DNA of 64,000 bases, taken from Alphaproteobacteria bacterium (GTDB taxonomy: Bacteria > Pseudomonadota > Alphaproteobacteria > GCA-2746255). The DNA lies in contig OZ252220.1 in NCBI GenBank assembly GCA_965249135.1, positions 1,990,056 to 2,054,055 on the forward strand. The letters are read 5' to 3'. Below, in pieces: positions 798-16,686 of the stretch (within the stretch, counting starts at the first letter, position 1; each line of letters opens with the position of its first letter). A program made the position numbers and the translations under genes. The notes beneath the pieces were generated by a model. The model saw only the letters and a list, made by a program, of their open reading frames with translations. It was not told the origin of the DNA and made no database searches.

Positions 798-1415
798 ATG
801 ACGACTAGACTTTCACCAATGCAGGCAAGGGGATTTCGAAAAAAGGTAATTCTTTTTGCCATTCTCATTTTTGCACTCGCAGGCATTGGCGGCTTTTTCG
901 CCTTCAAAAATGAGGTCGGGCGGATCGCCAGCATCCCCAATCTCTCCCCGGAGGAACTCTCCCAGGGCCTTTCCACGCGTAAGGAAGATTTCGTTCCCTT
1001 TGACGTGCGAACGCCGGCAGAGTTTAGAGAAAGCCACCTTGCGGGAGCGATCCGGATCGAGCCCGGGATGAAGGCGCAAGGCTTTGCTCGGGAGCATGGG
1101 GATCGGCTGGAGGGGAAGACCGTGGTTTTCTATTGTACGCTTGGTGTGCGCAGCACGCGGCTTGTCCATCGAATCCGGGATCGCCTGGAAGGCCTAGGCA
1201 TTACCGCCTTCTATAACCTGAGCGGCGGCATCTTCCGATGGTCGAGGGAAGGCTATCCCGTCGTGAGGACAGAAACACCGGTGGACAGCCCCTTTACCCG
1301 CCGATCACCGATCGTTGATGAAGTTGCTGCACAACAGCGCTTTGCTCACGTTTCTCCTCGGGATAAAACAGGGTTTTCCATTACCGCTCCGATGGGTGAG
1401 GGGGACGCGCCATGA
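798..1415 (+). CDS. membrane-anchored rhodanese-domain sulfurtransferase
   Basis: N-terminal TM helix. Rhodanese active-site loop CTLGVRS (6-residue loop, sulfurtransferase type). Stop overlaps the arsM start (ATGA). Confidence 0.8.
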   Translation: MTTRLSPMQARGFRKKVILFAILIFALAGIGGFFAFKNEVGRIASIPNLSPEELSQGLSTRKEDFVPFDVRTPAEFRESHLAGAIRIEPGMKAQGFAREHGDRLEGKTVVFYCTLGVRSTRLVHRIRDRLEGLGITAFYNLSGGIFRWSREGYPVVRTETPVDSPFTRRSPIVDEVAAQQRFAHVSPRDKTGFSITAPMGEGDAP

Positions 1416-2580
1416 GCACGACGACACTCGATAAGGACGCCGCCGTTTTACGCCGTTATGCGGCAGCGTCGCAGGTTCGCGAAGAGGCCTTATGCTGCGC
1501 CCCGCAATACGACCCCGCCTATCTCAAAATTCTGCCCAAGGAAATTATCGAACGCGACTATGGCTGCGGAGATCCGACCTCTTACGTTCGTGAAGGCGAG
1601 ACGGTGTTGGATTTGGGAAGCGGCAGCGGTAAAACCTGCTATGTGCTTTCGCAGGTCGTAGGGTCGTCCGGCCGTGTGATCGGCATCGATTTTAATCCCG
1701 ACATGCTTGCCTTGGCGGAAAAGCACCGCCTCACAATCGCCAAGCGGATCGGCTGGGACAACGTCACCTTTTGTCGGGCTCGGATTCAAGACCTTCGGAC
1801 GGATATCGGGGTCCTCGAGAAGCAAATTGCCGAGAAACCGATCGCCAGTTACGAGGATTACAGCGCTTTCGAATCTCATCACCGCGAGATGGTGACGCCA
1901 CTCATTGCCGACAATAGCATCGACGTCATCGTCTCGAGCTGTGTGCTGAATCTTATCCATCCGGATGAAAAACAACTGCTATTCCAGGAGATGTATCGCG
2001 TGCTGAAAGTAGGCGGGCGCGTGGCGATCTCGGATATTGTGTCGGATGAAGAGGTCCCGGCACGCCTACGCGAAGATGCGGAGCTCTGGTCCGGTTGTGT
2101 TTCTGGTGCCTTTCAGGAGACGGCCTTCCTGCGTGCGTTCGAAGAAGTGGGTTTCTACGGGATTTCGATCGAAAAGCGCGACTCGACTCCATGGTGCACC
2201 GTCGAGGGTGCACCGTCGAGGGAATCGAATTTCGGTCCGTAACGGTAACCGCTCACAAGGGCAAGGAGGGCCCTTGCTGGGAGCGCAATCAGGCAGTGAT
2301 CTATAAGGGCCCTTGGCGGGAGGTACAGGACGATGACGGTCACGTTCTGCAACGCGGCGTACCGACGGCCGTATGTGACAAAACCTATCGGATTTTCACC
2401 CCCCCGTATAAGGGCGAGATCGATCCAGTGTCTCCTCGGGTCGATATTCCTTTGGAACAAGCCCATCCCTTCGACTGTTTACGCACCGTCGCACGTCATC
2501 CCAGAGAGACGAAGGGGATGGACTACGACGTCACCACGGAAGCGGCCGACGTTTGCGGATCGGAGAAGGATTGTTGTTGA
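1412..2580 (+). CDS. arsM: arsenite S-adenosylmethionine methyltransferase ArsM, reading frame interrupted by a 14-bp tandem duplication (ORF pieces 1412..2242 and 2095..2580); possible pseudogene
   Basis: N-terminal CC pair, YGCGDP and LDLGSGSG SAM motifs. The downstream frame carries conserved C-terminal segments (KGKEGPCWERNQAVIYKGPW and a Cys-rich tail). The frame change is +2, matching the 14-bp duplication. Confidence 0.8.
2193..2220. repeat. perfect 14-bp tandem duplication (ggtgcaccgtcgag x2) inside arsM
   Basis: Read directly: 2193-2206 equals 2207-2220. 14 mod 3 = 2 explains the switch from the frame of 1412 to the frame of 2095. Confidence 0.95.
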
Positions 2581-2598
2581 GAGTGAGGCCGTGGCCGC

Positions 2599-3129
2599 TT
2601 AGAGCCGTTCCGCGATAGCGTCTGCGTCGGGAGCCAGGTTTGCCAGAGTGGCGACCACTTCTTCCCACTGACCGGGCTTCATTTGTTGGACAAGCTGGGT
2701 TTGTACTTTCGTCCAAAGCGGCAGGGCTTCCTTCAGTCGCTTAACCCCTTTCGCGGTTAGGGCAAGCTCCTTATGGCGCTGCTTGGGACGGGCCTTCACC
2801 TTGATCAGACCATCCCGTTTAAGCGGCCTTAGATTGCGGGAAAGGGTTGAGGGATCCATCGCCATCTCCTGGGCAAGGCCCGAGATTGTTGGCCGATCCG
2901 CAAGCGCCGTACTGACCAGGATGGCCATTTGGTTTGCATGAAGCCCTGTGGGAGCCAGTGCTTCGTCGTAGAGCCGCGTCACCGCTCGGGAGGATCGCCG
3001 CAAGTTGTGGCAAACACAGACCTTTCTAGTCCGAGCAAATTTCTTAAGTTCTTCGCGATTCCATGCATCCGGCATGTGCATATCCCTTGATACTATCTCG
3101 GCAAGATAAGGAAAGCCGAACAATCCCAC
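2599..3129 (-). CDS. MarR-family transcriptional regulator
   Basis: MarR wHTH signature (NLRRSSRAVTRLYDEAL...GLHANQMAILVSTAL...ISGLAQEMAMDPSTLSRNLRPLKRDGLI). The real start is probably the internal MHMPDAW. Confidence 0.85.
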   Translation of the reverse strand: MGLFGFPYLAEIVSRDMHMPDAWNREELKKFARTRKVCVCHNLRRSSRAVTRLYDEALAPTGLHANQMAILVSTALADRPTISGLAQEMAMDPSTLSRNLRPLKRDGLIKVKARPKQRHKELALTAKGVKRLKEALPLWTKVQTQLVQQMKPGQWEEVVATLANLAPDADAIAERL

Positions 3130-3174
3130 AACTTCCCAGCTTTTGGCGGCCTCTCGTCTGCTGACAAAAAACTC

Positions 3175-3188
3175 TCACAAATTTGTGA
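3175..3188. promoter_or_regulatory. perfect 14-bp palindrome tcacaaatttgtga in the marR / P460 divergent intergenic region; candidate MarR operator
   Basis: Read directly; the only AT-rich stretch between two divergent genes. Confidence 0.4.
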
Positions 3189-3370
3189 TCGTCCAGAATT
3201 TGAACAGGCAAGTCCGTGTATATACAATCAAATATATATGGAACGATTCTAAAAATCAAAAACAAATCTCACTTACGGATTAAGAGGATCTCCTGAGGTT
3301 GGAACGTACCGAAGGAGGAAATGCAGAAGAAAAAAGTTGGTGTAATGCGACTTGGAATCAGGAGACTCCG

Positions 3371-4305
3371 ATGAGTGCAGATTCCCTAAAAACCCTTAAA
3401 TCCGTTTTGCTATCCGGCACCATGCTTCCTTTGGTGGCGGGGGCAGGCGTTATTGCGATTGGCGTGACGCTTGGTGACACCCCTGTGCAAGCCGAGCAGC
3501 TCGCGGGCTATTACAAAAATCAGGGAACGAAGAATCCCTGTGCCGCGAAGAATCCCGATATGGCAAGGCGGGGCTGCAACCCTTGTAACCCTTGCGCGGC
3601 GAAGGGCTGTACCCCTGTGGCCCGTGCGGTCCATGCGGTGCCGCTGCAGGCCCAGAGCTTTCGGATAAGGAAGCAGACGCGCTTTATAAGAAGCTCAAGG
3701 GCAAGATGGCGAAGGCCTACAAGCAATCCGGTCTTCCCTTCGCCGCCTATTACCAGACCTGGAAACGCTTCAATACCGTCCCATACGTTTCCGCCACCCA
3801 TGGCGGTCGTTATGTGAACAACTATGGGAACGCGAAGGCAGGCGCATACAGAAAATTCGAAGAAGCTGGGAAGATGCCCAAAAGCGCCATCCTTGTGAAA
3901 GACAGCTTCACGAGCGTGGCTGCGAAAGGATGCAACCCCTATAATCCCTGTGCGGCGAAGAACCCTTGTGCGGCGAAAGGATGCAATCCCTGCAACCCCT
4001 GCGCGGCGGAGAACCCTTGTGCGGCCAAGGGCTGCAACCCTTGCAGCCCGTGCGGTCCCTGCAACCCATGTGGGGCTACATCGAAATCTCCCATTGGTCC
4101 CCTCTTCGTCATGGAAAAGATGGGAGAAGGATTCTACCCCGCGAGCGGCGATTGGCGTTACACGATGGTCTTGCCAAACGGGCAGGTCTTTGGGACGACG
4201 AAGGGAAAGGGCTCCGACAAGGTTGAGTTCTGCATAACCTGTCACGTAGCTGCGGAAGATTACGATCACTTGATGTTCTTGCCGGACGAATATCGGAAAA
4301 AGTAA
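3371..4305 (+). CDS. cytochrome P460-family protein with signal peptide and two inserted Cys-rich NPC/AAK repeat modules; 1-nt frameshift near 3607-3617 (ORF pieces 3299..3817 and 3592..4305)
   Basis: AGGAG RBS before the ATG at 3371, followed by a signal peptide. C-terminal CITCH heme motif followed by [10 protein letters not shown], resembling the N. europaea P460 C-terminus (CAACH...DMVFTQFYP). About 20 extra Cys in [11 protein letters not shown] repeats. The frames join if one base is restored in tgtacccctgt. Confidence 0.7.
3919..4075 (+). repeat. coding tandem repeat (18-nt NPCAAK-type units) inside the P460 gene; a shorter block lies at 3535-3655
   Basis: Read directly: repeated aacccttg(t/c)gcggcgaag-like units. 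Confidence 0.8.
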
Positions 4306-4411
4306 CCGAAACCGGCATCCGAACATCCAAGCACTTTGGCCCATCCGCGGCGGCATCGCGTTAAAACGTGAGTCGCCCGGTGGTGTCAAGGTGCAAGTCT
4401 AGGGAAGAATC

Positions 4412-5440
4412 ATGCGCGAGGATTGGACAAGGCCCCTTTTATTGGCAGCTGGCATATTTATCTTTTGTGTAACCGCCTACCATCTTTTTTCAGGGAACGA
4501 CGTCCTGGCCAGCGATTTGCGCAAATCCAGCGATTTGCGCAAATGGAGGTCAGAATGGCCCCATACGGACTTTGCAAAAACATCGATCGACTTCAATGAG
4601 ATTTCTTCCGGGGGACCCAAGAAAGACGGTATTCCTGCAATTGATTATCCGAGATTTAAGCCGATCGATGAGATTTCGACGGTCGGCAATGATGAACTCG
4701 TTGTGACGGTTATTATTGGTGATGAGGCACGTGCCTATCCAGTGCAAGTCCTGATGTGGCACGAGATCGTCAATGACAAGATCGGGGAGGTGCCCCTTTC
4801 CGTCACGTTCTGCCCGCTTTGCAACTCGGCAGTCGTTTTCGACCGGCGGCTGAAAGGGAAAGTCCTGGATTTTGGGACCACCGGTAAACTTCGCAACTCA
4901 GACCTCGTCATGTACGACCGTCAAACGGAAAGCTGGTGGCAACAGTTCACGGGTGAGGCGATTGCCGGATCCCTTACCGGCGAAAAATTGACGTTCCTCC
5001 CGGCGCGGGTCGAATCCTTCGCGAAGTTTCGGAAGCGGGCTCCAAAGGGAAAAGTGCTGGTCCCGAATTATACGAGCATGCGTGCCTACGGCTACAATCC
5101 CTATGCCGGCTATGACCGCAATCCCTATCCTTTCCGCTATCGGGGCGAAATGCCGTCAAACATCGCCCCGTTGGAAAGAGTCGTCTCGGTGGGGAAAGAG
5201 GCCTGGAGCCTCAAATTTCTCCGCAAACGTCGAAAGATCGTCGCCGATGGTCTTATTCTCACATGGGAATCCGGCCAGAACTCGGCGCTTGATACAGAGC
5301 GTATCAGCGAGGGGCGCGATATAGGGAATGTCATCGTCCAACGGAAAACGGCGGATGGCCCGGAAGATGCCGTTCACGACATAAGTTTTGCCTTTGCGTT
5401 TCATGCCTTTCATCCCGACGGCGTGATTCACGTGGATTAG
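4412..5440 (+). CDS. DUF3179-family protein with N-terminal TM anchor
   Basis: Characteristic DUF3179 segments (VTFCPLCNSAVVFDR, TGKLRNSDLVMYDRQTESWWQQFTGEAI). Confidence 0.75.
   Translation: MREDWTRPLLLAAGIFIFCVTAYHLFSGNDVLASDLRKSSDLRKWRSEWPHTDFAKTSIDFNEISSGGPKKDGIPAIDYPRFKPIDEISTVGNDELVVTVIIGDEARAYPVQVLMWHEIVNDKIGEVPLSVTFCPLCNSAVVFDRRLKGKVLDFGTTGKLRNSDLVMYDRQTESWWQQFTGEAIAGSLTGEKLTFLPARVESFAKFRKRAPKGKVLVPNYTSMRAYGYNPYAGYDRNPYPFRYRGEMPSNIAPLERVVSVGKEAWSLKFLRKRRKIVADGLILTWESGQNSALDTERISEGRDIGNVIVQRKTADGPEDAVHDISFAFAFHAFHPDGVIHVD
4510..4545. repeat. in-frame 18-bp perfect tandem duplication (SDLRKS x2) in the DUF3179 gene
   Basis: cagcgatttgcgcaaatc repeated twice (4510-4527, 4528-4545). Confidence 0.9.
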
Positions 5441-5512
5441 GGAAACCCGGGTCGACGCGATGGGGATTATCAGCCCCGACGGCAATCAGAAAATACTATA
5501 TTTTTCAACAAA

Positions 5513-7093
5513 CTACGCAAAGTTGATCGGCCGTCCGATGAGCGATTCCGTAAGCCGTGCCGTGTTCCGGGCAACCAGCGCATAAATCGATACCTGGGGA
5601 TTGACGCCGAGGCTCGTCGGAAAGACGGATCCATCAAAAATGGAAAGCCCTTCGACTTGGTGATGGCGACCAAACGAATCGACGACCCCAAGCTTGGCAT
5701 CGTCCGACATCGCACAGCCGCCCATGATATGTGCAGAGAAGATAAGTGCGCGAGGAGGTTTCATCGAAAGACCCTCGGTGATCGCCTGTTTTGCCTCTCG
5801 CCAGCTTTCATAAGGCCGCGTCTCCCGGTGAACGGGAAAAACGGATTTTGCACCTGCTGCAAAGCTAAGTTCCGCCATCGAAAGATAAGCGTGACGGAAT
5901 CCTTCCCAGTGAAATTCATTTGTACGGTAGTCGAGCACGGGACTTTCATCTTTTTGGAGAACGACCGTGCCGCCTTCGAAAGAGGGATTGAACCCATCCC
6001 GTATTAGCGCAATCAAGGCATGCGTATAGGGAAGCTGCGCCATCCCGTCTGCACGCTGATCACCGAACGTCGGGATCGAAATCGCCGCATGAACGGGGAA
6101 AAGCGGAGGCACCTCAAGTTTATAGCCGACCTTTCCATCGATACCGTCGCGCCAGAGAAACTCATCCGAATAGATCGACTGCGGTGCTCCATCGAAAGGC
6201 AGGACTTCTTTCGATAATTCACCGGCAAGGGCATTGACCGGATGGAGGAAGGTTCGTTTACCAAGCCGTTGATAAGGATCTGGAATCTTGGATCGGAGAA
6301 GCAGGCCGGGTGAATTGATGCCACCCCCCGCCACGACGACGTTTGATGCATAAACCCTGATCTTCCGGCCGTTCGGATGAATACCTTCCGGATCGAGAGC
6401 CAGACACTGCACCATTTTCACCTGACCGTGCGCCGTTTCGATCTTCCTGGCTCTGGCATGGCTGATCAGGATGGCGCCGTGGTCAAGCGCCGCTGGAATC
6501 GTCGTTACCAGCATGGATTGTTTCGCATTCGTCGGGCATCCATAGCCGCAATAGCTGATGTTCCAGCATCCACGGACATTCCGGGACACGATGCCATGTT
6601 TCCAGCCAAGGGCATCGCAGCCACGAAGCAGCGCGCCGTTGTTGGCATTCGGAGGCACGTCCCAGGGCGCGATGGCAAAGCGGCGTTCCACCATTTCGAA
6701 CCACGGCGCCATCGTCTCTGCGTCCGTCTCCTTCACGCCAAACGCTTCCGCCCAATGGGCAAGGGTCTCGGGCGGCGTGCGGAAGCTTGCCGTCCAGTTG
6801 ACGACGGTGCCGCCGCCGACGGCCCGCCCCTGAAGGATGGTGATTGCCTTGTCCTTCGTCTTATGGCTTCCCGTGTCCCAATAGAGCCTACGGTAGGCGT
6901 CCCCCTCCCGGCCCGTGAAATCACGCGCCGTCCAATAGCCGCCTTCCTCGATCAGCACGACCTGCAGGCCGGCCTGGGCCAGCATTTCCGCCGCCACGCC
7001 GCCGCCGGCACCGGTACCGATGATGGCGACATCGGCGGCGAAGCTTTCGTCCTTCTCGAGCGTCGCAGCGTCGATATGGATTTGTTCCGCCAT
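5513..7093 (-). CDS. GMC-family FAD-dependent oxidoreductase (choline/alcohol/gluconate-2-dehydrogenase-like)
   Basis: N-terminal FAD fold (DVAIIGTGAGGGVAAEMLAQAGLQVVLIEEGGYW); GMC C-terminal domain. Confidence 0.85.
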   Translation of the reverse strand: MAEQIHIDAATLEKDESFAADVAIIGTGAGGGVAAEMLAQAGLQVVLIEEGGYWTARDFTGREGDAYRRLYWDTGSHKTKDKAITILQGRAVGGGTVVNWTASFRTPPETLAHWAEAFGVKETDAETMAPWFEMVERRFAIAPWDVPPNANNGALLRGCDALGWKHGIVSRNVRGCWNISYCGYGCPTNAKQSMLVTTIPAALDHGAILISHARARKIETAHGQVKMVQCLALDPEGIHPNGRKIRVYASNVVVAGGGINSPGLLLRSKIPDPYQRLGKRTFLHPVNALAGELSKEVLPFDGAPQSIYSDEFLWRDGIDGKVGYKLEVPPLFPVHAAISIPTFGDQRADGMAQLPYTHALIALIRDGFNPSFEGGTVVLQKDESPVLDYRTNEFHWEGFRHAYLSMAELSFAAGAKSVFPVHRETRPYESWREAKQAITEGLSMKPPRALIFSAHIMGGCAMSDDAKLGVVDSFGRHHQVEGLSIFDGSVFPTSLGVNPQVSIYALVARNTARLTESLIGRPINFA

Positions 7094-7415
7094 CAGACTA
7101 CCTTTTGCACCTCGTCCGGGATGTCCGGCGGCCCGTCATAGCCCACCCAGGGCCAGGCGCGCGGATTGTCGTACCAGGCGGCCATAACCAAGTCGTGGAA
7201 GGCGGCATAGGCAAGCTGCAGGAGCGTAAATGAGCTCGTCGACCAACGGCCCCCAGGAAATCCTCCACCTCTTTCCCGGAGGCCGTCTCCCAGCCGCTCC
7301 AAATGCCCGTGAGTGCTATTCTGGCCGGCGGGAAGTCCAATAGGTCGAAAAGCTGGCGCAGGTCAGCCTGCATCAGGGGGGACATGGCGGCGATTAGGCG
7401 GTCGATTTCACCCAA
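7093..7415 (-). CDS. small hypothetical protein translationally coupled to the GMC oxidoreductase (TGATG overlap); apparent frameshift near 7226-7234 (ORF pieces 7098..7415 and 7093..7302)
   Basis: Each overlapping ORF has one protein-like half and one junk-like half; the halves join across an A3/T3 run. Confidence 0.45.
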
Positions 7416-7441
7416 GATTTCGGCAATCGCAGCCGGCCGCC

Positions 7442-9106
7442 CTAACCGGCCTTGTGCGCTCCGTCCTGCTTGCGCAGTTTCCGACGCATGATCTTGCCGG
7501 TTGCCGTCATCGGCAATTCGGAAACGAACTCAACTTCGCGCGGATATTCATGCGCCGCAAGACGCGACTTTACGAAAGCCTGAATCTCGCTCGCCAGCGC
7601 ATCATTTGGCGAGAACTCCGGCTTGAGAACGACGAATGCCTTGACGACCTCTGTGCGCACCGGATCCGGGATGCCGATGGCAGCGACCAGCGCGATGGCC
7701 GGATGCTTCATCACGCATTCCTCGATCTCACCGGGACCGATGCGATAGCCAGCGCTGGTGATAATGTCATCGTCGCGACTCTTGTACCAAAAGTAGCCCT
7801 CGTCATCCTTACTTGCCAGATCGCCGGTCAGACACCAATCGCCGATGAATTTCTTCTTGGTGGCTTCCGGGTTCCGCCAATATTCGAGAAACATCACTGG
7901 ATCCGGGCGTTGGATTGCAACCTGACCGACGGTCCCCGGTGCTACCGGATGACCCTCCTCGTCGACGATATCGACGTTATGCCCTGGGATCGGACGTCCC
8001 ATGGAACCAGGTCTCACGGGCAGAATGGTAGCGCAATTGCCCAGCACCAAATTGACCTCGGTCTGACCATAGAACTCATTAATGGTAAGGCCGAATACCT
8101 CGTCCCCCCAACGCAACAATGCCTCGCCCAGCGTTTCGCCGCCACTGCCAAGGCTTCGTAGGTTGACGGCATGACGTTCCTTCGGATTTTCGACCTGACG
8201 CATGAGCTTGAGAGCGGTCGGCGGCAGGAAGACGTTGCGTACATTGTGCTTTGCGATCAGATGAAACGCATGTTCAGGATCAAACTTGCGCGCCCGGTGG
8301 GCGAGAACCGGAATGCCATGATGCCAACTCGGCAACAGCACATCGATCAGTCCGCCGATCCATGCCCAATCCGCCGGTGTCCAGAACAGATCTCCCGGCT
8401 GCGGAAACAGGTTGTGAGGAAACTCGACCCCTGGCAGATGACCGAGCAGTACACGATGGGCATGTACGGCTCCTTTCGGCGGGCCGGTCGTGCCGGAGGT
8501 ATAGATGATCAGTGCCGGGTCATTGGCGGTCGTGGCGACAGGCTTGAAATCGGCCGACGCCTCATCGAGGAGGGCCCAGAAATTGGCAGTGTCTTCATCC
8601 TTTCCCTCAGTCACGATAATGGTGGAAAGGCTCGGCAGGCGGTCGCGAATGGTGAGTAGCTTTTCAAGATTTGAACCGTCCGTGACGACCACGCGGGCAT
8701 CGCTGTTGGCGAGCCGGTATTCGATGGCATCCGGTCCAAACAGCGTAAACAGCGGAACGGCAATACCCCCCGCTTTGTAGACGGCAAGGTGGGTAATCGC
8801 CGCTTCGGGGGATTGCGATAGCAAAATGCCAACGCGTTCGCCGCGCTCGAGACCCAAAGCCTGTAACACGTTCGCGAAACGATTGGAAAGTTTTCTCAGT
8901 TGACCAAAGGTGTAGGTGGTAACGTTGCCGGCCTCGTCTTCGTAGATTAAGGCCCGTTTATTGGCCGGGTGCTTGTCGCAGACATCGATGCCAAGGTTGT
9001 ATTGCTCGGGCACCTCCCAGCGAAATGCTTGGCGAATTTCCTCGTAGCTTTTGCCCGGTTTTAGCATGCTTCTTCCCAAAAAATTTATTGGTTTTTTTTC
9101 ATTCAT
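7442..9106 (-). CDS. AMP-dependent acyl-CoA synthetase/ligase
   Basis: AMP-binding motif IYTSGTTGPPKGAVHAH; adenylate-forming C-terminal domain. Confidence 0.85.
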   Translation of the reverse strand: MNEKKPINFLGRSMLKPGKSYEEIRQAFRWEVPEQYNLGIDVCDKHPANKRALIYEDEAGNVTTYTFGQLRKLSNRFANVLQALGLERGERVGILLSQSPEAAITHLAVYKAGGIAVPLFTLFGPDAIEYRLANSDARVVVTDGSNLEKLLTIRDRLPSLSTIIVTEGKDEDTANFWALLDEASADFKPVATTANDPALIIYTSGTTGPPKGAVHAHRVLLGHLPGVEFPHNLFPQPGDLFWTPADWAWIGGLIDVLLPSWHHGIPVLAHRARKFDPEHAFHLIAKHNVRNVFLPPTALKLMRQVENPKERHAVNLRSLGSGGETLGEALLRWGDEVFGLTINEFYGQTEVNLVLGNCATILPVRPGSMGRPIPGHNVDIVDEEGHPVAPGTVGQVAIQRPDPVMFLEYWRNPEATKKKFIGDWCLTGDLASKDDEGYFWYKSRDDDIITSAGYRIGPGEIEECVMKHPAIALVAAIGIPDPVRTEVVKAFVVLKPEFSPNDALASEIQAFVKSRLAAHEYPREVEFVSELPMTATGKIMRRKLRKQDGAHKAG

Positions 9107-9224
9107 CTACCCACTTAAACTTGTTGTGGATTATGACCAGCGTCTTTGGTCGCACCTAGCATTTTTCAGAACTCCTTGTATGCTAAGGGGTTCTTACTAA
9201 ATAAGGGGGCAGGAGTCAGAACGG

Positions 9225-10496
9225 ATGATGGTGAAGACAAGGATCATTTGGATATGGGCCATGTTGGCCGCTGGCCTGATCTTTGGGATTCCGGCTTATG
9301 CCGAAGAAGTGCCCGAAGGGACAGTCATCAGCGCCAAGAATCTTGGCTCCCTTCTCGATAAGACCTTCGAGGGGGAAACCATTCAGAATCTTATCTCTGA
9401 GCAGTTTCAGTGGCAGATTCGCGAGAAGGGTCTGACGATGAAACTTAAGCATTCGAAGCCTCATCCAAAGGATCCGCAATGGGTGGCGGCGACGAATCGC
9501 AATCTGGAAGCGGTAACGCTGGATGGCGCAACGAATCAGGTGAATGGCTGGCTGGCTGGTGCGCCTTTTCCGGCGATCGACTTGCAAGACCCGAAGGCGG
9601 GCATCAAGGTCATGTGGAACATGTTCCTGGGCAAGCAGCAGGGCGATAGTCAGGAATACCCGAACACGGTCATTGCACTTCTCAACGACAAATCAGGGCT
9701 CGAACGGGTCCAGAAACAATTTGTCAAGCGGGTTTTCGTGAGAGGGGCTTTGCGCCGGGGCGGGCAAGTCTCCGAAGAGAAGAGAATCTTGGAAAAAACG
9801 CTTTCCGTCCTGACCGCACCCCTGGACTTGAAGGGAAATGGGCTGGTCCTGATCCGCTACGTAAATGGGGATCCGGATTGGCTATTGGCCTACGCGGTAG
9901 CGGCGCGCAAAGTACGGCGTTTTTCAGGGGCCTTCTGGATGGATAAGTTGGGTGCCACGGACTTCCTTACCGACGATTTGATGGTCTTGAGCGCACATCC
10001 GACCTGGTATCCAGAATTCAAGATAATCGCGAAAAAGAAGATCCTTGTAGTTGCCCATTCGAAGGACCCTTTCTGGCAGCCAAAGGCTGCCACGCCCCAA
10101 GAACGATTTCCTCTCTTCGATTTAGGAACGCCACCCTATTGGAATCCGGTCGATGAGTGGGAACCCCGTGAGGTCTACGTCGTCGAGGGAAAAACGCCCG
10201 AACAGCACCCCTATAGCCGCAAGGTGGTCTATGTCGATGCCGAGTTCTGGACCCCTTATTTGGGCGAGTATTACACGCCGAAGGGGCAGCTCTGGAAAAC
10301 GACGATCCAGGGCTACAGCGTCTTCCCGACCCAGGATGATCCAGACGGAAAGGTCTTGTGGCCGACATGGTCGGCGGTTTTTGATTTTCAGATCGGCCAC
10401 GCCACTATTCTGATGACGGATGAAAACATCCGATTCAATACCGATATTTCGCCAACGGAAATCAATCTGAAGGCCGTCAAAAGAGCAAAGTGGTGA
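9225..10496 (+). CDS. secreted DUF1329-like (LolA-like fold) protein
   Basis: AGGAG RBS and signal peptide; resemblance to the DUF1329 family recalled from memory. Confidence 0.5.
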   Translation: MMVKTRIIWIWAMLAAGLIFGIPAYAEEVPEGTVISAKNLGSLLDKTFEGETIQNLISEQFQWQIREKGLTMKLKHSKPHPKDPQWVAATNRNLEAVTLDGATNQVNGWLAGAPFPAIDLQDPKAGIKVMWNMFLGKQQGDSQEYPNTVIALLNDKSGLERVQKQFVKRVFVRGALRRGGQVSEEKRILEKTLSVLTAPLDLKGNGLVLIRYVNGDPDWLLAYAVAARKVRRFSGAFWMDKLGATDFLTDDLMVLSAHPTWYPEFKIIAKKKILVVAHSKDPFWQPKAATPQERFPLFDLGTPPYWNPVDEWEPREVYVVEGKTPEQHPYSRKVVYVDAEFWTPYLGEYYTPKGQLWKTTIQGYSVFPTQDDPDGKVLWPTWSAVFDFQIGHATILMTDENIRFNTDISPTEINLKAVKRAKW

Positions 10497-10522
10497 GGGG
10501 TAGCTTTTTGTGAAGCATCGCA

Positions 10523-10559
10523 AAACCGGGCAGAGCCGATAGGCTCCGCCCGGTTTTTA
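10523..10559 (+). terminator. rho-independent terminator (12-bp GC stem, T5)
   Basis: aaaccgggcagagcc...ggctccgcccggttttt immediately after the DUF1329 gene. Confidence 0.6.
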
Positions 10560-10602
10560 TATGTGCCGTCTCATAGGATGCCTTCCACATAAGAGGAAGC
10601 TC

Positions 10603-10635
10603 AAAAAAAAGAGGAGCGCGAAAGCGCCCCTCTTG
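10603..10635 (-). terminator. rho-independent terminator (10-bp stem with one G.U pair, U8 tail on the minus transcript)
   Basis: agaggggcgc-tttc-gcgctcctct-tttttttt on the minus strand, downstream of the P460-like paralog. Confidence 0.6.
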
Positions 10636-10660
10636 CATAAATCCGGAACGAATTTAGGTT

Positions 10661-11863
10661 CTAGCTCGCATCGGTCTCGAAATAAAGCGTCTTCTTGTAC
10701 TCATCCGGAAGGGCGAACAAATAATTGGATTTTGCGCCTCTTTCCTTTGTGATATCTGCAGCACTACCTTTGGCGTCGATCCTGGTGATCTTCCAGTCGC
10801 CGGTTGCAGCGCTGAAGCCTTTTTCCATCTTTTCAAGAATGACGAGCTCGCCGGCCCTCCACCTGGCGGTGAAGCCGGTGCGATTGCCATCACCGTGGAA
10901 GCTCTCCAGCACGAGAATCGTGTCGGCCGGCATCCGGTTGAAATTGCCCCACTTGTCCACCTTGTCGTTTGCATAAAGGTTGACGTAATGGTCGCCGGTG
11001 TATTTTCCGATTTGGAAGGGAACGAAGTTATAGCGCTTCCATTCCGTGTATTCGGAAACGATCTCGTTCTGGGATTTTTCCCACTCTTCCACCATCTTCC
11101 ATCCAACCGCCATATAGAGGGCCTGCGCTTCCTTCTTCGAGAGCTTGTTGCGGGCGACCAATTCAGCTTGCTCTTCAGCCGACCTCAAGTCTTCACGACC
11201 GATCACTTCGCCGCGCACGACTGGAGATTCAATGGCGTTGACGACCAAGGCGTCTCCCTCGGTGTGAACGATGATCTCCCAGAACATGCCGGTTGCGAAA
11301 AGCGACGTCACGGCAAGAACGAACTGATCGTAGTCAAACGGCTCACCCGGACGTGTACGCTTGGCGTGGTCTTCGCCCAAGATATAGCGTTCGGCAAAAC
11401 CTGCTTCGAGATCCTTCTCGCCCTCGACGCGAAGCTCTTTAACGACCTTGCCGTTCTTCATAGGCCAAGTCTTGCCGGCACCGGGCGCGTAGAACGTGCC
11501 AGGGAGGTCAATCGTATCCGGGTAAAACCGGTAATAGTCCTTCGGCAAATCTTGCGTGAAGTTTTGGGGGGCGGCATCTGTTCGATCGTGATGCGTGAAC
11601 GTGTTTTCTTTCACGTTGTAGATATGCCCGCCCCGAATGAAGGTGTCTGGTGCGTCCGGCGATTCGGCCCTGGCAGACGTGCCCATGACCAGAGCGGCTG
11701 TCGTTACGACGACAGCCCCAAAGGCTATTGGAAGTATCGCTCCGGACGACAGAAGGGATTTCACGAAACTGGAACTCATGGCTTCCTCGCTGTCTTTGTT
11801 CTGTTTAGAAATTCTTTGTTTTTTATCGTTGGCGCCAAGCTGGCGCGTTGAATTATTTAACAT
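10661..11863 (-). CDS. P460-fold paralog lacking the CXXCH heme motif, with a ~200-aa N-terminal extension and signal peptide
   Basis: C-terminal 180 aa align with the 3371..4305 protein (WKRYNFVPF vs WKRFNTVPY; ILEKMEKGFSAATGDWKITRI vs [22 protein letters not shown]; LFALPDEYKK vs [10 protein letters not shown]), but SNY replaces CITCH. Confidence 0.65.
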   Translation of the reverse strand: MLNNSTRQLGANDKKQRISKQNKDSEEAMSSSFVKSLLSSGAILPIAFGAVVVTTAALVMGTSARAESPDAPDTFIRGGHIYNVKENTFTHHDRTDAAPQNFTQDLPKDYYRFYPDTIDLPGTFYAPGAGKTWPMKNGKVVKELRVEGEKDLEAGFAERYILGEDHAKRTRPGEPFDYDQFVLAVTSLFATGMFWEIIVHTEGDALVVNAIESPVVRGEVIGREDLRSAEEQAELVARNKLSKKEAQALYMAVGWKMVEEWEKSQNEIVSEYTEWKRYNFVPFQIGKYTGDHYVNLYANDKVDKWGNFNRMPADTILVLESFHGDGNRTGFTARWRAGELVILEKMEKGFSAATGDWKITRIDAKGSAADITKERGAKSNYLFALPDEYKKTLYFETDAS

Positions 11864-12039
11864 ATTTTCAACGGGTCAGGAAATCTAGTCAATATCGCTT
11901 GATTGGTGGCCTGACTTTGCGGGCGCGGGAGACCAGGGCTTGGCCTTATTTCTTAAGCTGTTGATCTGACTTAAGAACTGGGATTAACCTTAGCGACGAT
12001 ACCGAATTTTAAAAGCCGGCCCAGAGGCGCCAGGGTGCA

Positions 12040-12747
12040 ATGACCGACCAAAACCCGATTTCTCGCCCTAAACTCGAGGCCATGCTGACGGCCGGCCACG
12101 AGATCCTGGAATGCTACCGGCTGCTCACCAAGACAGGCGACAACGTCGTCGGCGAGCTGATTCGCGGTCACGAGACCTTCTATGAGTGGAATCACTATCC
12201 CGAGGGGGATGCCTACGATCCGGAGACCCATTCCCAGTACTACTACCACGCCCATCGGGAGGATCGGGAGGAACACGGCCATTTCCACACCTTCCTGCGG
12301 CCAAAGGGCATGCCTTCGGATATCCTGCCGGCTCTTTTGGCGGATTTCGAGCCGCCTGAAGGCGACAACGCCGCCCTCAGCCATCTCATCGCCATCTCGA
12401 TGGATGCCCATGGGTACCCGACCGGACTGTTCACCACGAACCGCTGGGTGACCGGCGAGGTCTGGTATGCCGCAAAGGATGTCTGCCGGATGGTTGAAAT
12501 TTTCGAGATGGATCAGGCGCGTCCATCCTGGCCAGTCAATCGCTGGGTTACGGCAATGCTGCGGCTTTTTCAGCCGGAAATTTTTGATCTCCTTTCACGT
12601 CGCGACGCGGCGGTAAAAGCCTGGGAGGAGAAGCATCCGGATCGCAATGTTTACGAAGACCGGGAATTCGAGGTCGCTTCCGAAATCGACATTTCCGTGG
12701 AGGGTAAACTTCGCCAACTCGAAGCGATGCTCCAGGAAAGCGCCTGA
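12040..12747 (+). CDS. His-rich hypothetical protein (DUF-type, conserved in alphaproteobacteria)
   Basis: Complete ORF. His cluster HYPEGDAYDPETHSQYYYHAHREDREEHGHFHTF. Confidence 0.5.
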   Translation: MTDQNPISRPKLEAMLTAGHEILECYRLLTKTGDNVVGELIRGHETFYEWNHYPEGDAYDPETHSQYYYHAHREDREEHGHFHTFLRPKGMPSDILPALLADFEPPEGDNAALSHLIAISMDAHGYPTGLFTTNRWVTGEVWYAAKDVCRMVEIFEMDQARPSWPVNRWVTAMLRLFQPEIFDLLSRRDAAVKAWEEKHPDRNVYEDREFEVASEIDISVEGKLRQLEAMLQESA

Positions 12748-12833
12748 TATCGGCGCGATTCATCGGTCGAAATGGAAAAGGCGCCGCTACCCGTTAAGGT
12801 GACAGCGCCTTAAAAGCATGCGGTTCGGAAGGC

Positions 12834-13211
12834 TTACTTTGCCGCTTCCTTCAAATACGCGATTAGATTCTGGCGTTGGGCTTCCTTCTTCAGTCCCGGG
12901 AAGGCCATTTTGTTGCCTTTAATGTAGGTCTTCGGGCTTGCAAGATAGGCGTCGATCGTTTCTTCGTTCCAGGTGACGCCCGCCGCCTGCATCGCCTTCG
13001 AGTAGTTGAAACCTTCCGCCGTTCCCGATTTCCGACCGAAGATGCCGGCAAGGGAGGGACCTACTTTGTGTTTGCCAGCCTCCAATGTGTGACAGGCTTT
13101 GCACTTTTTAAAAACCTTTGCGCCTTTTTTCGCGTCACCCGCCAACGCGGATACACTCGACAGTGCGAGCACTAAGGCAACCGAAACGGCCAGAATCTTC
13201 GATGATTTCAT
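12834..13211 (-). CDS. class I c-type cytochrome (cytochrome c2/c550-like) with signal peptide
   Basis: CKACH heme motif; mitochondrial cytochrome c-like GRKSG...Y...M signature. Confidence 0.85.
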
Positions 13212-13365
13212 CTATTCTCTCCTGAACCTTTCACAGGCTTGGGGAATTCGTTCAAAATGCGTCCGCAGTATCCGAAAGATATAGGCGCCTTGCAACCGGT
13301 TAGCTGGAAATCGGCCGAATCATTGTTCCCATACGGGACGCACCCTCAGACGTAATGCCCGCGTC

Positions 13366-14475
13366 TTAAAAAGGCGTAAATCCAGACTGACCCCCCATAC
13401 GACGGTAACGGAAAGGGGGCGGCGCCTCGCCAGGCTCGCTTTCCACCAAGCGTCTTACCAAGTCGTGGTCTGGGGAAAGTTCACAGACCGGGTCCGTGTT
13501 TGCCGCGTTTCCGGTCAACATCAGCGCCTGGCAACGACAGCCCCCCCAATCGACTTCTCGCCGGTCGCAGGACCGGCAGGGCTCTGGCATCCAGTCGGTA
13601 CCTCGGAAACGATGGAAGGCGTCCGATTCCAACCAGATATCGGTCAAACTCCGCTCCCGGACATTGTCGAAGTGAAGGTCGGGGATGGTCTCGGCGGCAT
13701 GGCACGGAAGCACCTTGCCGGATGGGCTTACATTCAGGAATTGGTTGCCCCATCCGCCCATGCAGGCCTTTGGCCGCCTCGCATAGTAATCCGGCGGCAC
13801 GTAATCGATGAGTAGAACCCCCTTCAGCCGCTCTTCCGCCTCCACGACGACGGCATTTGCCGCTTCAATCTGCTCACGGCTGGGAAGCAGTGCACGTCGG
13901 TTTTCGATGGCCCATCCGTAATATTGGGCATGGGCGATCTCCAGCCGTCCGGCGCCGAGATCGACGGCAAGATCAATCATTGCGTCCAGCCGCTCCAGAT
14001 TCTGGCGGTGAAAGACGCAATTGATCGTGAGCGCAAGGCCGGCATCGCGAATAAGCCGTGCCACCGTAAGTTTCTTTTTGTGTGCACCTTGTATGCCGGC
14101 GATCCGGTCTGCTGGCTCAGCAGAGACGTCCTGAAGACTGAGTTGAACATGCTCGAGGCCAGCTTTCCTAAGTGCGGCAATCTTCGATTCATCAAGGGGG
14201 ATGCCAGAAGTGATCAGGTTCGTATAAAGCCCAAGGCCTGTGGCATGGCGAACGAGGGTGGAGAGGTCCTTGCGAGCGGCGGGTTCGCCGCCGGAGAAGT
14301 GGATTTGATAGGCGCCAAGGGCAGCTGCTTCCTCCACTACCCGGCACCATTCCTCCGTTCCTAGTTCGTCGCCTACGCCCTCCAGTGCCAGCGGGTTCGA
14401 GCAATATGGGCATTGCAGCGGGCAGCGGTGGGTGAGCTCGGCTAGCACGGCAAGAGGGGGTGCCGGCGTGTTCAT
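13366..14475 (-). CDS. pqqE: PQQ biosynthesis radical-SAM enzyme PqqE (start at MNTPAPP; the listed ORF extends spuriously to 14673)
   Basis: CPLQCPYC radical-SAM motif; SPASM C-terminal cysteines; ATGA overlap with the pqqD stop. Confidence 0.9.
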   Translation of the reverse strand: MNTPAPPLAVLAELTHRCPLQCPYCSNPLALEGVGDELGTEEWCRVVEEAAALGAYQIHFSGGEPAARKDLSTLVRHATGLGLYTNLITSGIPLDESKIAALRKAGLEHVQLSLQDVSAEPADRIAGIQGAHKKKLTVARLIRDAGLALTINCVFHRQNLERLDAMIDLAVDLGAGRLEIAHAQYYGWAIENRRALLPSREQIEAANAVVVEAEERLKGVLLIDYVPPDYYARRPKACMGGWGNQFLNVSPSGKVLPCHAAETIPDLHFDNVRERSLTDIWLESDAFHRFRGTDWMPEPCRSCDRREVDWGGCRCQALMLTGNAANTDPVCELSPDHDLVRRLVESEPGEAPPPFRYRRMGGQSGFTPF

Positions 14476-14759
14476 ACCGCAAGGATCCCCTGATCCGCGA
14501 GGTCCTGAAGAAGCTCCAATACGTCCTCCCCAACCCTTTCGCTGGAGGTCTCGTAGCGCTCGGCAAGGGTTGTAACCATAGCAGCAACGGATGAATTCCC
14601 ATCGCAGAGCTTCAGTACCTCGACCGCGATTTCGTCTGGCACGAGAAGGCGTTCCGGGGCCAGCACGATCCACCGCCCGCGCTTTTCATCGAAACGAAAC
14701 CGAACATGCGGCGCAAGTCGTGGCATGGTCTCGGTGTCAAGCACACGTCGTTTATTCAT
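14472..14759 (-). CDS. pqqD: PqqA-binding chaperone PqqD
   Basis: 95 aa, characteristic PqqD sequence; operon position. Confidence 0.85.
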   Translation of the reverse strand: MNKRRVLDTETMPRLAPHVRFRFDEKRGRWIVLAPERLLVPDEIAVEVLKLCDGNSSVAAMVTTLAERYETSSERVGEDVLELLQDLADQGILAV

Positions 14760-15496
14760 GCACCGCTCTCCGGTTGGAAGGCGCCAGGTGGAACCCGTCC
14801 GGGATCAACATAGGCATAGGTAAGCGCATCCAGCTGTGTCCACAAAACGTCACATTTGAAGTGGAGGGCCTGAAGGACGCGTTGCTGGGCTTCTGCCGTT
14901 CGTGCTTCCCTCTTCACATAGTCGAGGGCAAAATCGGCGTCCCGCGTTGCCTGGTCGAGGCGCTTGCGAAAATAGGAAAGCGTCGTCTCATCGATGAAAT
15001 CGTAGTGTTCCAGCATGCCGGCGATCCGCTCGCGATGGATTTTCGGCGCGAAGAGTTCCGTCAATGAAGAGGCGATTCCCTCAAGAAGGGATCGCTCGGC
15101 GACGAAGTGAACATAGGCTTTCACGGCAAACCGCGTGGCTGGCAGGACCCCTTGCATGGAGACGACGTCGTCCCGGGGAAGTCCCAGGCCATCCGTCAGT
15201 TTCAGCCAACGGGCGATACCCCCCTCGCGTTCCGGCGTCCCGTCGTGATCCTCGATGCGAACACGCCAGGCGCGTCGGAGTGCCGGGTCCGTCATACGCG
15301 AAAGCAGCACGGCATCCTTGATCGGAATGTGCGCTTGATAGCAATAGCGGTTAAGTGCCCAAGCCTGCACCTGTCCTTTCCGAAGCTTCCCTCCGTGAAG
15401 AAGTGCATGGAAAGGATGCTTGTCATGATAGCGCTCGGCTCCGATCGCATGCAGCGCCGCTTCAAGTTCATCCGGTGTCAATGGCACGCCACTCAC
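14756..15496 (-). CDS. pqqC: pyrroloquinoline-quinone synthase PqqC
   Basis: PqqC/TenA-like sequence; operon position. Confidence 0.9.
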   Translation of the reverse strand: MSGVPLTPDELEAALHAIGAERYHDKHPFHALLHGGKLRKGQVQAWALNRYCYQAHIPIKDAVLLSRMTDPALRRAWRVRIEDHDGTPEREGGIARWLKLTDGLGLPRDDVVSMQGVLPATRFAVKAYVHFVAERSLLEGIASSLTELFAPKIHRERIAGMLEHYDFIDETTLSYFRKRLDQATRDADFALDYVKREARTAEAQQRVLQALHFKCDVLWTQLDALTYAYVDPGRVPPGAFQPESGA

Positions 15497-16425
15497 AACT
15501 GAATCTCCATGCCGTCATAGGCCACTTCCCAGCCCTTCTCGGTAACCGACTCGCGTTCCGGCGAATCATCCATGAGAACAGGGTTCGTATTGTTGAGATG
15601 AACGAAGATTTTCCGTTTCACCTCTAACGTCCGAAAGGCGGCAAGGCTACCTTCTTCACCGGAGATACTCATGTGTCCCATACGCTTTCCCGTCTTTACG
15701 CCAGTGCCGGCCGTGACCATTTCATCGTCCTGCCATAGCGTTCCGTCGAAAAACACAAGGGGCGTCTTACGAAGGCGCTTCGCCAACCCATCGGGGAAGG
15801 CCGCGCAGCCCGGTATGTAATAGAAATAACCATCCCCCGTCTCGGATGCCACCCGAAGCGCGATGGTGTCTTCCGCAACGCTGCCGAAATCTGGTCCCGC
15901 CGTCGGATCCTCCAGATAAAGCGCCACTTTCCCCGGGACGGTGAATGCCTCGACGACGAGGCCGGAGGGAGCGCGATCGGCGTTTTCGAGTCGCGTTGGT
16001 GTGTCGAGGGTAAATTTTCTCCGGCTCACTACCTCAGGGTTTAGCGCTTGAAAAATTTGATTTGCATCGAAAGTCCCGTGCACCCTTGCCGTCGCGTAAA
16101 GGCTTAACGGTTGCCCCTCACGAAGGGTAAGAAGCCCTGCGATGTGATCGACATCGGCATTCGTCACCACGACACCGCCAATCGGACTGTGCCTTGCCCC
16201 ATCCGCTGGATGAAGGGCCGGATTGTCGTTCAGTTGCTGGCGAAGATCGGGGGAGGCGTTGAGAAGAAACCAGGGCCCTTCATCCGCGCGCACGGCAAGG
16301 GAGGACTGGGTTCTGGGGTGGACTTTCGGATCCCCCGAACGGGCGCGCTGGCAGACGGGGCAGTTACAGTTCCACTGAGGGAGCCCCCCACCGGCAGCCG
16401 ATCCCAGAACGAGAATCTGCAACAA
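15493..16425 (-). CDS. pqqB: PQQ biosynthesis protein PqqB (metallo-beta-lactamase fold)
   Basis: Conserved N-terminus LVLGSAAGGGLPQWNCNCPVC. Confidence 0.9.
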   Translation of the reverse strand: MLQILVLGSAAGGGLPQWNCNCPVCQRARSGDPKVHPRTQSSLAVRADEGPWFLLNASPDLRQQLNDNPALHPADGARHSPIGGVVVTNADVDHIAGLLTLREGQPLSLYATARVHGTFDANQIFQALNPEVVSRRKFTLDTPTRLENADRAPSGLVVEAFTVPGKVALYLEDPTAGPDFGSVAEDTIALRVASETGDGYFYYIPGCAAFPDGLAKRLRKTPLVFFDGTLWQDDEMVTAGTGVKTGKRMGHMSISGEEGSLAAFRTLEVKRKIFVHLNNTNPVLMDDSPERESVTEKGWEVAYDGMEIQL

Positions 16426-16484
16426 CCGGCGCCTCCCGTTGCGATGTTTTCTTCGAGGGCTGTGTGAAACTTAAAAGTTTGAAA

Positions 16485-16568
16485 TCAGCCTTCCGCACAG
16501 GCGTAGGCGTTGATCTCAAGGCCGATGCGGATCACTTCGATCCGGGGTTTCTTCCACTGCTTTCGCAT
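16485..16568 (-). CDS. pqqA: PQQ precursor peptide PqqA (27 aa: MRKQWKKPRIEVIRIGLEINAYACAEG)
   Basis: Conserved W-K-K-P and the E-x-x-x-Y precursor motif (EINAY). Lies 59 bp upstream of pqqB. It is the C-terminal 27 codons of the listed 95-aa ORF 16485..16772. Confidence 0.8.
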   Translation of the reverse strand: MRKQWKKPRIEVIRIGLEINAYACAEG

Positions 16569-16686
16569 ATCTGCTTCCCTGGGCCTTGTCTTCTTTTCGT
16601 CTAAGGCCTTTCCATGCAAAGTATGGCCTTTCCGTCTGCAGAGAGGCAAGGGCTTTATCTGGAGGATGGGGAGGTAAGGTACCGCA
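16569..16686. promoter_or_regulatory. pqqA / ABC-transporter divergent promoter region with direct repeat ggcctttcc x2 (16-bp spacing)
   Basis: Read directly: aaggcctttccatgcaaagtatggcctttccgtc. Confidence 0.3.

Follow-up and report, generated by a model that had tools for sequence, protein, structure and literature searches.

Cytochrome P460, known from nitrifiers and methanotrophs, is an enzyme that converts hydroxylamine to N2O. In the proteins studied, a lysine is cross-linked to the porphyrin (Lys70 in NeP460, Lys78 in McP460, and Lys106 in NsP460), and its counterpart in the cytochrome c'-beta of Thermus thermophilus is Phe61 (PMC11928373). Active P460s need a distal carboxylate, Glu96 or Asp102, and during their catalysis a nucleophile attacks an {FeNO}6 species (PMC11928373). 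Each of the three P460s of solved structure has a beta3-beta4 loop that extends to the haem of the other monomer, and the loop is shorter in c'-beta (PMC11928373). The subject of this study is a gene of this fold at positions 3371-4305 of a 64,000-nucleotide stretch of contig OZ252220.1 (assembly GCA_965249135.1, Alphaproteobacteria bacterium), hereafter the window. The locus contains an interrupted gene of which the product, exported and with one haem, has the cytochrome P460/c'-beta fold and two cysteine-rich arrays, one after the export signal and one within the beta3-beta4 loop. The original prediction, made from the letters of the window, had described a single P460-family gene with two metallothionein-like repeat modules, of a cysteine spacing typical of metal(loid) binding.

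The haem domain and the frame break

The interval consists of two overlapping open reading frames (ORFs) in different frames. The upstream ORF (3299-3817) holds the ATG at 3371, which is preceded by an AGGAG Shine-Dalgarno sequence; the frame of this ATG codes for an export signal and a cysteine-rich stretch and is then out of register until the stop at 3817. The second ORF (3592-4305) starts with TTG and codes for the remainder of the cysteine stretch, the globular domain, and the CITCH motif, with its stop codon at 4303-4305. Addition of one base at any point in 3586-3639 fuses both frames into a 311-codon ORF. The frame-repaired protein has 22 cysteines: 8 in block 1, 12 in block 2, and 2 in the CXXCH motif. 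The prediction of about 20 extra cysteines was therefore accurate (exactly 20 besides the CXXCH pair), whereas the treatment of 3371-4305 as one gene did not hold for this copy, in which the P460 part lies in the other frame (3592-4305) after the loss of one base near 3611.

The fold was identified by profile and structure comparisons. The ORF at 3592-4302 scored 27.9 bits against Pfam PF16694 (cut-off 27), matching the C-terminal half of the profile only. With the 52-residue insert removed in silico the score was 32.5 bits and the match covered profile positions 4-123 of 125; the frame-repaired protein of 311 residues scored 26.8 bits, slightly under the cut-off. An AlphaFold2 model made with 36 family sequences showed the five-stranded beta-sheet of the P460/c'-beta fold, with a predicted local distance difference test (pLDDT) score above 90 for the core and of about 50 for the insert. 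When the model was compared with the PDB by Foldseek, the best 17 matches were all P460 or c'-beta (7ead, 9hrk, 6hiu, 7s5o, 2je2, and others), and the lower matches were noise. The best 6 had a probability of 1.00, and target-normalized template modeling (TM) scores reached 0.68.

Single-sequence and full-profile searches of the PDB sequences (full family profile, E <= 1) did not find P460, and usable PDB alignments came only from a trimmed core profile (HMMER) and from hhalign. The hhalign comparison of the family core with Nitrosomonas europaea P460, for which the query sequence was identical to 2je2_A, gave a probability of 76% and E = 2e-5 and placed the invariant lysine of the (A/V)KDSF motif on Lys70. 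HMMER aligned the same lysine with Phe61 of T. thermophilus c'-beta. Because the subfamily keeps a lysine at the haem cross-link position, its alignments assign it to the P460 type and not to the c'-beta type. The core of the window copy keeps 29 of the 29 family-invariant residues. The Pfam match, the predicted fold, the CXXCH motif, and the lysine thus bear out the predicted P460 identity, and the single CITCH motif is present as described.

Fold, CXXCH, and lysine being established, catalytic competence with NH2OH is suggested by the alignments. A weak HMMER alignment (E = 0.56) pairs the glutamate of the MEKM motif with Gly82 of TtCP-beta, the site that corresponds to the carboxylate; the hhalign alignment to NeP460 is gapped there. 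Among the 36 aligned relatives, 5 show K, Q, R, H, or V in this column.

Comparison with related genes located the lesion. The reading TGY AAC CCY TGY is found in orthologues and in the paralogous segment of block 2, so one A of the Asn codon AAC is missing at about 3611: the block 2 segment is GGC TGC AAC CCT TGC AGC CCG TGC GGT CCC TGC, and block 1 is GGC TGT A-C CCC TGT GGC CCG TGC GGT CCA TGC. In the DNA alignment with orthologues the window has a 10-nt gap at about 3611. The orthologues at loci L004 (Alphaproteobacteria bacterium OFTM260) and L005 (isolate 277c_12), both from metagenome-assembled genomes, are intact single ORFs of 285 and 301 residues. Their layout matches that of the window: a signal, an N-terminal NPCAAK/CNPC block, and a P460 domain with an internal cysteine insert. 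L004 is syntenic with the window over 1.4-14.6 kb, at 65-82% amino acid identity. Export signal and CXXCH lie in one ORF in both orthologues, whereas in the window the frameshift cuts the signal (3371 frame) off from the haem domain. The original prediction had raised the possibility that the repeats are out of frame or a separate element; block 1 of the window copy does span the frame break, and L004 and L005 carry both arrays in one intact ORF. A programmed frameshift was rejected because the orthologues are in frame and an X XXY YYZ slippery heptamer was not visible at the site.

The 1-nt deletion in this genome is either the mark of a recent pseudogene or a base-calling error. We put at about even the chances that the window copy is a dead gene, whose signal-plus-repeat ORF and leaderless P460 ORF yield no functional product. 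The loss of a single nucleotide at a site with no visible slippery heptamer agrees with this, as do the 14-nt duplication in the adjoining arsM-like gene and a further gene remnant in two frames at 7096-7523. The sister strain at locus L085, which is 98.7% identical in nucleotide sequence over window positions 2297-22000, has lost the whole P460 gene: at L085:1093-2509 (window 3369-4784) this gene and the 5' third of the DUF3179 gene are replaced by a degenerate IS3/rve element of about 1.4 kb. Matches in a collection of 5.8 billion proteins did not exceed 59% identity, and an intact copy from the same species was not found. On the other side, because every family-invariant residue is kept in the core, any inactivation must be very recent. 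Single-base indels are common in low-coverage long-read assemblies, and the related contigs come from assemblies of low coverage (3x-17x) with names suggesting long reads; the break may thus be a sequencing error. The sequence TGTAACCCC at 3608-3616 would mean an intact 311-codon ORF, and TGTACCCC a pseudogene. The protein of the interrupted gene may not be made at all, and the window copy serves mainly as a pointer to the family.

Cysteine arrays in an alphaproteobacterial P460 subfamily

The two modules lie where the original prediction placed them. Block 1 has 8 cysteines in 37 residues and follows the signal peptide; block 2 has 12 cysteines in 52 residues and lies inside the fold, between ILVKDSFT and PLFVMEKM. 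Cysteine makes up 22-23% of each, and Lys, Ala, Asn, Pro, and Gly are abundant; the two together contain a single Tyr and neither His, Phe, nor Trp. Like metallothioneins, they combine many cysteines in CxC or CxxC motifs with few aromatic residues. Block 2 is a 51-nt tandem repeat of 2.6-3 copies with 79-84% matches (3922-4076). Its 17-residue units differ at 3-7 synonymous and 2-6 nonsynonymous codons, and 10 of the 11 cysteine codons common to the units are kept; because of these codon differences and the kept cysteine codons, we conclude that block 2 is coding sequence under constraint and not chance low complexity. Blocks 1 and 2 are homologous DNA, with a local alignment score of 65 versus 15.5 +/- 2.5 for shuffled sequences.

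Structure prediction placed the insert at the tip of the beta3-beta4 hairpin, beginning 8 residues past the lysine, as a disordered segment. The hairpin from KDSF to PLFVM is 63 residues long in the window versus 10-11 in most relatives. If the family dimerizes as the solved P460s do, the insert would bring 12 extra thiols near the haem pocket of the partner subunit.

The KxxLLS..P core of the export signal is common to the family, to a haem-less paralog in the window, and to stand-alone cysteine-array proteins. Because its h-region is long, the signal may be an uncleaved membrane anchor instead of a cleaved signal. Binding of haem or of an Fe-S cluster by the arrays was rejected: CXXCH is absent from the arrays, and the leader is without a twin-arginine motif, so that export by Sec in an unfolded state would be expected. 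An antisense ORF (3520-4389) was likewise rejected as a gene. It has no family match and is a shadow of the repeats, as are similar antisense ORFs beside related genes.

Arrays of this kind are widespread. The frame-repaired protein matched 1201 proteins at E <= 1e-3 in the 5.8-billion-protein collection, and a genome scan found relatives in at least 474 species genomes, nearly all of Alphaproteobacteria. Carriers include Rhodospirillales, Kiloniellales, Hyphomicrobiales, Sneathiella, Emcibacter, Minwuia, and the cultured Aestuariispira insulae CECT 8488 (L062). Each of the best 120 matches has 13-59 cysteines in total, in N-terminal arrays; in the sequences inspected, a conserved C(V/I)VPRL motif often interrupts them. 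Some members are annotated at NCBI as 'cytochrome P460 family protein', and others are nameless or 'hypothetical protein'. A profile search of 1.84 billion cluster representatives (50% identity clusters) gave 190 clusters at E <= 1e-30. Many of these contain members of 200-240 residues that have the lysine and whose only cysteines are the CXXCH pair. Because lysine-keeping members free of other cysteines exist, we conclude that the arrays are an accessory gained within one P460 branch.

The original prediction knew of no P460 with an insert like that of block 2. Eight distinct sequences proved to have one at the same point, and most of the closest relatives have N-terminal arrays. The long hairpin occurs in 5 of the best 120 proteins and in 4 of 83 related loci; its carriers (P0001, P0015, P0055, P0073, L001, L004, L005, and L007; P0020 is the L001 gene) are the closest relatives of the window protein. 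A metagenome scan for the window's own sequence gave no match, and a degenerate metagenome scan gave 7 further loci, with the hairpin-insert clade represented by 0 of the 6 readable genes. These results demonstrated the following: arrays of Cys, Asn, Pro, Ala, and Lys have been added between export signal and haem domain in many members of a large alphaproteobacterial subfamily; they vary in copy number by tandem duplication yet keep Cys, Pro, and Asn; and in a small clade that includes the window a second array, DNA-homologous to the first, lies in the beta3-beta4 loop. The family is an uncharacterized, widespread variant of cytochrome P460. No account of such cysteine arrays was found in the published literature, and a 2025 review of the P460 superfamily gave no matches on repeats, insertions, or extensions.

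Gene neighborhood and other features of the window

For the 83 related loci, ORFs within 5 kb of the P460 gene were clustered. The recurrent neighbors are listed in Table 1 with the features of the window. At least one of the FGE-like, DUF6969, and c550 genes was present in 20 of the 49 loci that have at least 3 kb on both sides, and three more Pfam-annotated loci have the order FGE, P460, small protein, DUF6969 or the order HAD-MsrB-DUF6969-FGE, P460.

Table 1 Features of the window and recurrent neighbors of the P460 gene in related loci
Feature	Coordinates	Strand	Remarks
ArsM-like S-adenosylmethionine (SAM) methyltransferase	1412-2580	+	Two frames, split by 14-nt tandem duplication GGTGCACCGTCGAG x2, about 2196-2223
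MarR-family regulator	2599-3129	-	Divergent from P460 gene; N-terminal CVC motif (KVCVCHNLRR); same position in L005 (CLC)
Sigma-70-like promoter match TTGAAC-17-TACAAT	3200-3228	+	AT-rich MarR/P460 intergenic region; consensus match only
Divergent promoter match for MarR gene	3259-3231		Consensus match
Start codon and N-terminal export signal, then EQ	3371-3493	+	KxxLLS..P core
Cys-rich block 1	3530-3639	+	Spans frame break; ends [N]PCGPCGPCG
Frameshift site TGTACCCCTGT	3608-3618	+	Upstream frame, 3371; downstream frame, 3592
P460 domain part 1	3655-3909	+	N-terminal helix, motif, strand beta3 ending ILVKDSF
Lys codon of VKDSF	3898-3900	+	Invariant in family
Cys-rich block 2	3919-4074	+	Three 17-residue units; tip of beta3-beta4 hairpin; predicted disordered, pLDDT about 50
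P460 domain part 2 and stop codon	4099-4305	+	Single CITCH at 4231-4245
DUF3179 gene	4412-5440	+	Co-directional, 106 nt downstream; N-terminal signal or anchor; FCPLC motif
DUF6969			Recurrent neighbor in 24 loci
Exported FGE-sulfatase-domain protein			Recurrent neighbor in 19 loci
Cytochrome c550 (CycA-like)			Recurrent neighbor in 10 loci
MsrB			Recurrent neighbor in 8 loci
HAD hydrolase			Recurrent neighbor in 7 loci
Stand-alone Cys-array proteins	L001:5691-5993, L002:5422-5766, L042:11100-11408, L061:7422-7712, L062:9253-9723, L074:9360-9716, and others

At least 13 loci encode, directly next to the P460 protein, stand-alone proteins of 90-115 residues that have the family signal peptide and CNPCAAKK/NPCAAK arrays and no haem domain. 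Because such separate secreted array proteins exist, we conclude that the arrays are autonomous functional modules and not spacers. These proteins, whose ends are conserved, cannot be linkers, and they speak against the idea that the arrays are a low-complexity tether, perhaps stiffened by disulfides, between a membrane anchor and the haem domain, with the loop insert as a tolerated slippage product of no chemical role. Several observations would suit a tether. The arrays lie between a long hydrophobic N-terminus and a globular domain, a position comparable to that of the Ala/Pro-rich linkers of membrane-anchored cytochromes c; they are free to vary in copy number, relatives having 0 to about 70 cysteines; they are predicted to be disordered and have arisen by tandem duplication; and the existence of Cys-free members indicates that the core works without them. 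Cysteine, however, is an unusual linker residue. Hundreds of species have retained Cys, Asn, and Pro, and the codons of the units differ more often synonymously than nonsynonymously. Moreover, DUF6969 and FGE-like genes occur only beside Cys-rich members, in 24 and 19 of 66 loci versus 0 of 17 Cys-poor loci for each (Fisher p = 0.002 and 0.009, phylogeny ignored). A role as tether is therefore improbable.

The FGE-like gene is almost always divergent from the P460 gene and directly upstream of it, for example at L002:4325-5182 (-), L095:5888-6769 (-), and L096:5950-6807 (-); the window has none. The segment GGSWDDxGCG[IV]CRxAARH, with its cysteine pair, is kept in 18 of the 18 full-length copies, and we take this pair to lie in the segment that holds the copper-binding pair of canonical FGE. 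One could imagine the arrays, whether fused, inserted, or stand-alone, as the dedicated substrate or partner of a conserved periplasmic system made up of the P460-type enzyme, the exported FGE-like protein, DUF6969, and c550, in which the cysteines of the C-N-P motifs would be converted, for instance, to formylglycine, S-nitrosothiol, or cross-links. The arrays, which read C-N-P-C-N or C-N-P-C-A, have the Cys-Pro spacing of the FGE-substrate motif C-x-P-x-R and lack its Arg at +4. We consider this proposal the most doubtful of those discussed here; if true, marine Alphaproteobacteria would have a new kind of thiol chemistry, borne on protein and linked to the metabolism of nitrogen oxides.

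DUF3179 follows the P460 gene in the window, L004, and L005, and outside the hairpin-insert clade it adjoins the gene upstream in L003. Because DUF3179 is listed as a UxxC/T selenoprotein family in two selenoprotein reviews, the protein is probably a thiol redox protein; an exact look-up of the window's DUF3179 protein returned no record. Its place at L001 is taken by a TlpA-like thioredoxin that has a WCPAC motif. Of the 5 loci that make up the hairpin-insert clade, 4 thus encode a CxxC-type partner directly downstream, three of them DUF3179 and one the TlpA-like protein.

The arrays might accordingly be a redox thiol pool near the P460 haem, intercepting {FeNO}6 (as S-nitrosothiols), peroxide, or oxidants in nitrosative or oxidative defense, with the resulting disulfides re-reduced by the CxxC neighbors. 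The spacings CGPC and CNPC are thioredoxin-like and count for such a role. The loop that carries the insert is the one reaching the partner subunit's haem, MsrB occurs in 8 loci, DsbA-like and AhpC/Redoxin genes are found nearby, and metal genes are not recurrent in the neighborhood. The attack of a nucleophile on the {FeNO}6 species of P460 catalysis provides the chemical analogy (PMC11928373). All of this support is gene context and chemistry by analogy, and reductase neighbors are equally expected if the thiols stay reduced for metal binding. Haem proteins with a thiol buffer built in are not known to us, and we hold the thiol pool to be an unlikely, though serious, alternative.

The original prediction had remarked that the P460 gene sits 1 kb from an arsM module. 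The arsM-like gene is broken in the window and intact in L004 (410 residues) and in L085 (398 residues), and the L004 protein scored 371 bits against the NCBIfam model methyl_ArsM, its best match there, under the cut-off of 500. Apart from the window and L085, it adjoins the P460 gene in 1 of the 83 related loci (L004); the linkage is thus lineage-specific, and a general arsenic link was not supported. The MarR regulator, with its N-terminal cysteine motif, may be a thiol-based sensor.

Several other features of the window were recorded. The haem-less paralog (10661-11863, minus strand, 400 residues) has the same type of signal, with an unknown domain of about 200 residues replacing the cysteine arrays. 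As had been predicted, it has no insert; its P460-like domain also has neither CXXCH nor the lysine (VLESF). An orthologue with 65% identity is present in L004, and the gene is flanked by DUF1329 and DUF6969. A cytochrome c550 (CycA-like) gene at 12834-13211 (-) is a candidate electron partner, and just beyond it is a pqqB-C-D-E operon for pyrroloquinoline quinone (PQQ) biosynthesis (13366-16425, -), which is also found in L004 and L085. The gene remnant at 7096-7523 (-) corresponds to a protein of 231 residues in L004; it matches in two frames, with the first 89 codons missing, and overlaps the end of an acyl-CoA synthetase gene (7442-9106) that is absent from L004 at that position. A GMC oxidoreductase gene is also broken in L085. 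The sole RNA gene in the window by Rfam and ARAGORN is a tRNA-Thr (CGT) at 51520-51595 (+).

Proposed metal binding by the arrays and comparison with known systems

The reading that we favor, at a probability of about 0.35, is that the arrays are metallothionein-like thiolate modules that would bind a soft metal or metalloid near the haem and be kept reduced by neighboring CxxC proteins. The haem domain would carry out P460-type chemistry on small N-oxides (NH2OH, NO) and exchange electrons with the c550-type cytochrome. The flexible arrays would bind Cu(I) or Zn(II) most plausibly, and in this lineage possibly As(III), close to the haem of the partner subunit, and the periplasmic CxxC neighbors (DUF3179 here and the TlpA-like thioredoxin in L001) would keep the array cysteines reduced. 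We prefer metal binding because the composition, the CxxCxxC spacing, the metallothionein-sized stand-alone forms, and the FGE-like neighbor all fit it, copper being suggested by the canonical FGE.

A number of results weigh against metal binding. The arrays matched no known metallothionein family: Pfam scans (E <= 0.1 to 1) gave sub-threshold compositional matches only (Mst87F at 14-18 bits, and zf-CXXC at 23.4 bits for a stand-alone array protein with CxxCxxC spacing), and NCBIfam gave none. The argument is thus one from composition and cysteine spacing, and the AlphaFold2 model has low confidence over the arrays. The periplasm is oxidizing, and free thiolates are unusual there. Genes for copper, zinc, mercury, or arsenic resistance or transport were not among the recurrent neighbors in the 83 loci; the arsM-like gene has the restricted distribution given above, and other ars genes were not seen. 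The MsrB, FGE-like, and CxxC neighbors fit a thiol-redox role at least as well as metal binding. In this species the P460 gene is dispensable, because it is out of frame in the window and absent from sister strain L085. For the haem chemistry, the distal carboxylate of NH2OH oxidation is placed by a weak alignment only, in a region where hhalign has a gap. In likening the repeats to metal(loid)-binding modules, the original prediction had overstated the case.

Whichever role applies, hundreds of marine alphaproteobacterial species encode a divergent P460 branch with the cross-link lysine. Many of its members have tens of cysteines in tandem arrays, and one clade has an array in the loop that reaches the partner haem. 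They share a set of little-studied neighbors: secreted Cys-array proteins, a periplasmic FGE-like protein, DUF6969, MsrB, and a c550-type cytochrome. Should the arrays prove to bind metals or to cycle thiols beside the haem, the family would represent a new coupling of haem N-oxide chemistry to periplasmic thiol or metal chemistry, with a possible bearing on the turnover of NO, NH2OH, and N2O by marine heterotrophs. The cultured carrier A. insulae CECT 8488 opens the family to direct study.

Of the described systems, the cytochromes P460 of N. europaea and Methylococcus capsulatus (2je3, 6hiu) share with the window family the fold (Foldseek probability 0.96-1.00), the single C-terminal CXXCH, the beta3 lysine, periplasmic export, and possibly, by a weak alignment, the distal glutamate in MEKM. 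The two differ in that sequence similarity is marginal (27.9-32.5 bits in Pfam; no PDB match at E <= 1 with the full family profile) and that the window family has an extra N-terminal helix and cysteine arrays at the N-terminus and in the beta3-beta4 loop. The window family also belongs to heterotrophic marine Alphaproteobacteria rather than to nitrifiers or methanotrophs, and is known here from sequence and model. Among the c'-beta cytochromes (T. thermophilus 7ead, M. capsulatus 9hqt), 7ead was the best structural match (E = 7e-5, target-normalized TM-score 0.68) and the sole P460/c'-beta entry of the PDB found by the core profile. In c'-beta, however, a Phe or Met stands at the position of the invariant lysine of the window family, and the beta3-beta4 loop is short and off the partner haem.

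The arrays resemble metallothioneins in being small or modular, with 22-30% cysteine in CxxC and CxxCxxC spacing, an abundance of Lys, Ala, Asn, Pro, and Gly, very few aromatic residues, and an absence of His. Disorder is predicted without ligand, and the stand-alone array proteins are of about metallothionein size. Unlike metallothioneins, the arrays are without Pfam homology, are exported to an oxidizing compartment, consist of exact tandem repeats, and are fused to or inserted in a haem enzyme. In concept the loop insert is like the Met-rich insert of CueO, a multicopper oxidase, where a flexible segment rich in ligands covers a periplasmic active site and could capture a soft-metal substrate; CueO combines methionines with copper centers, whereas the window family combines cysteines with haem.

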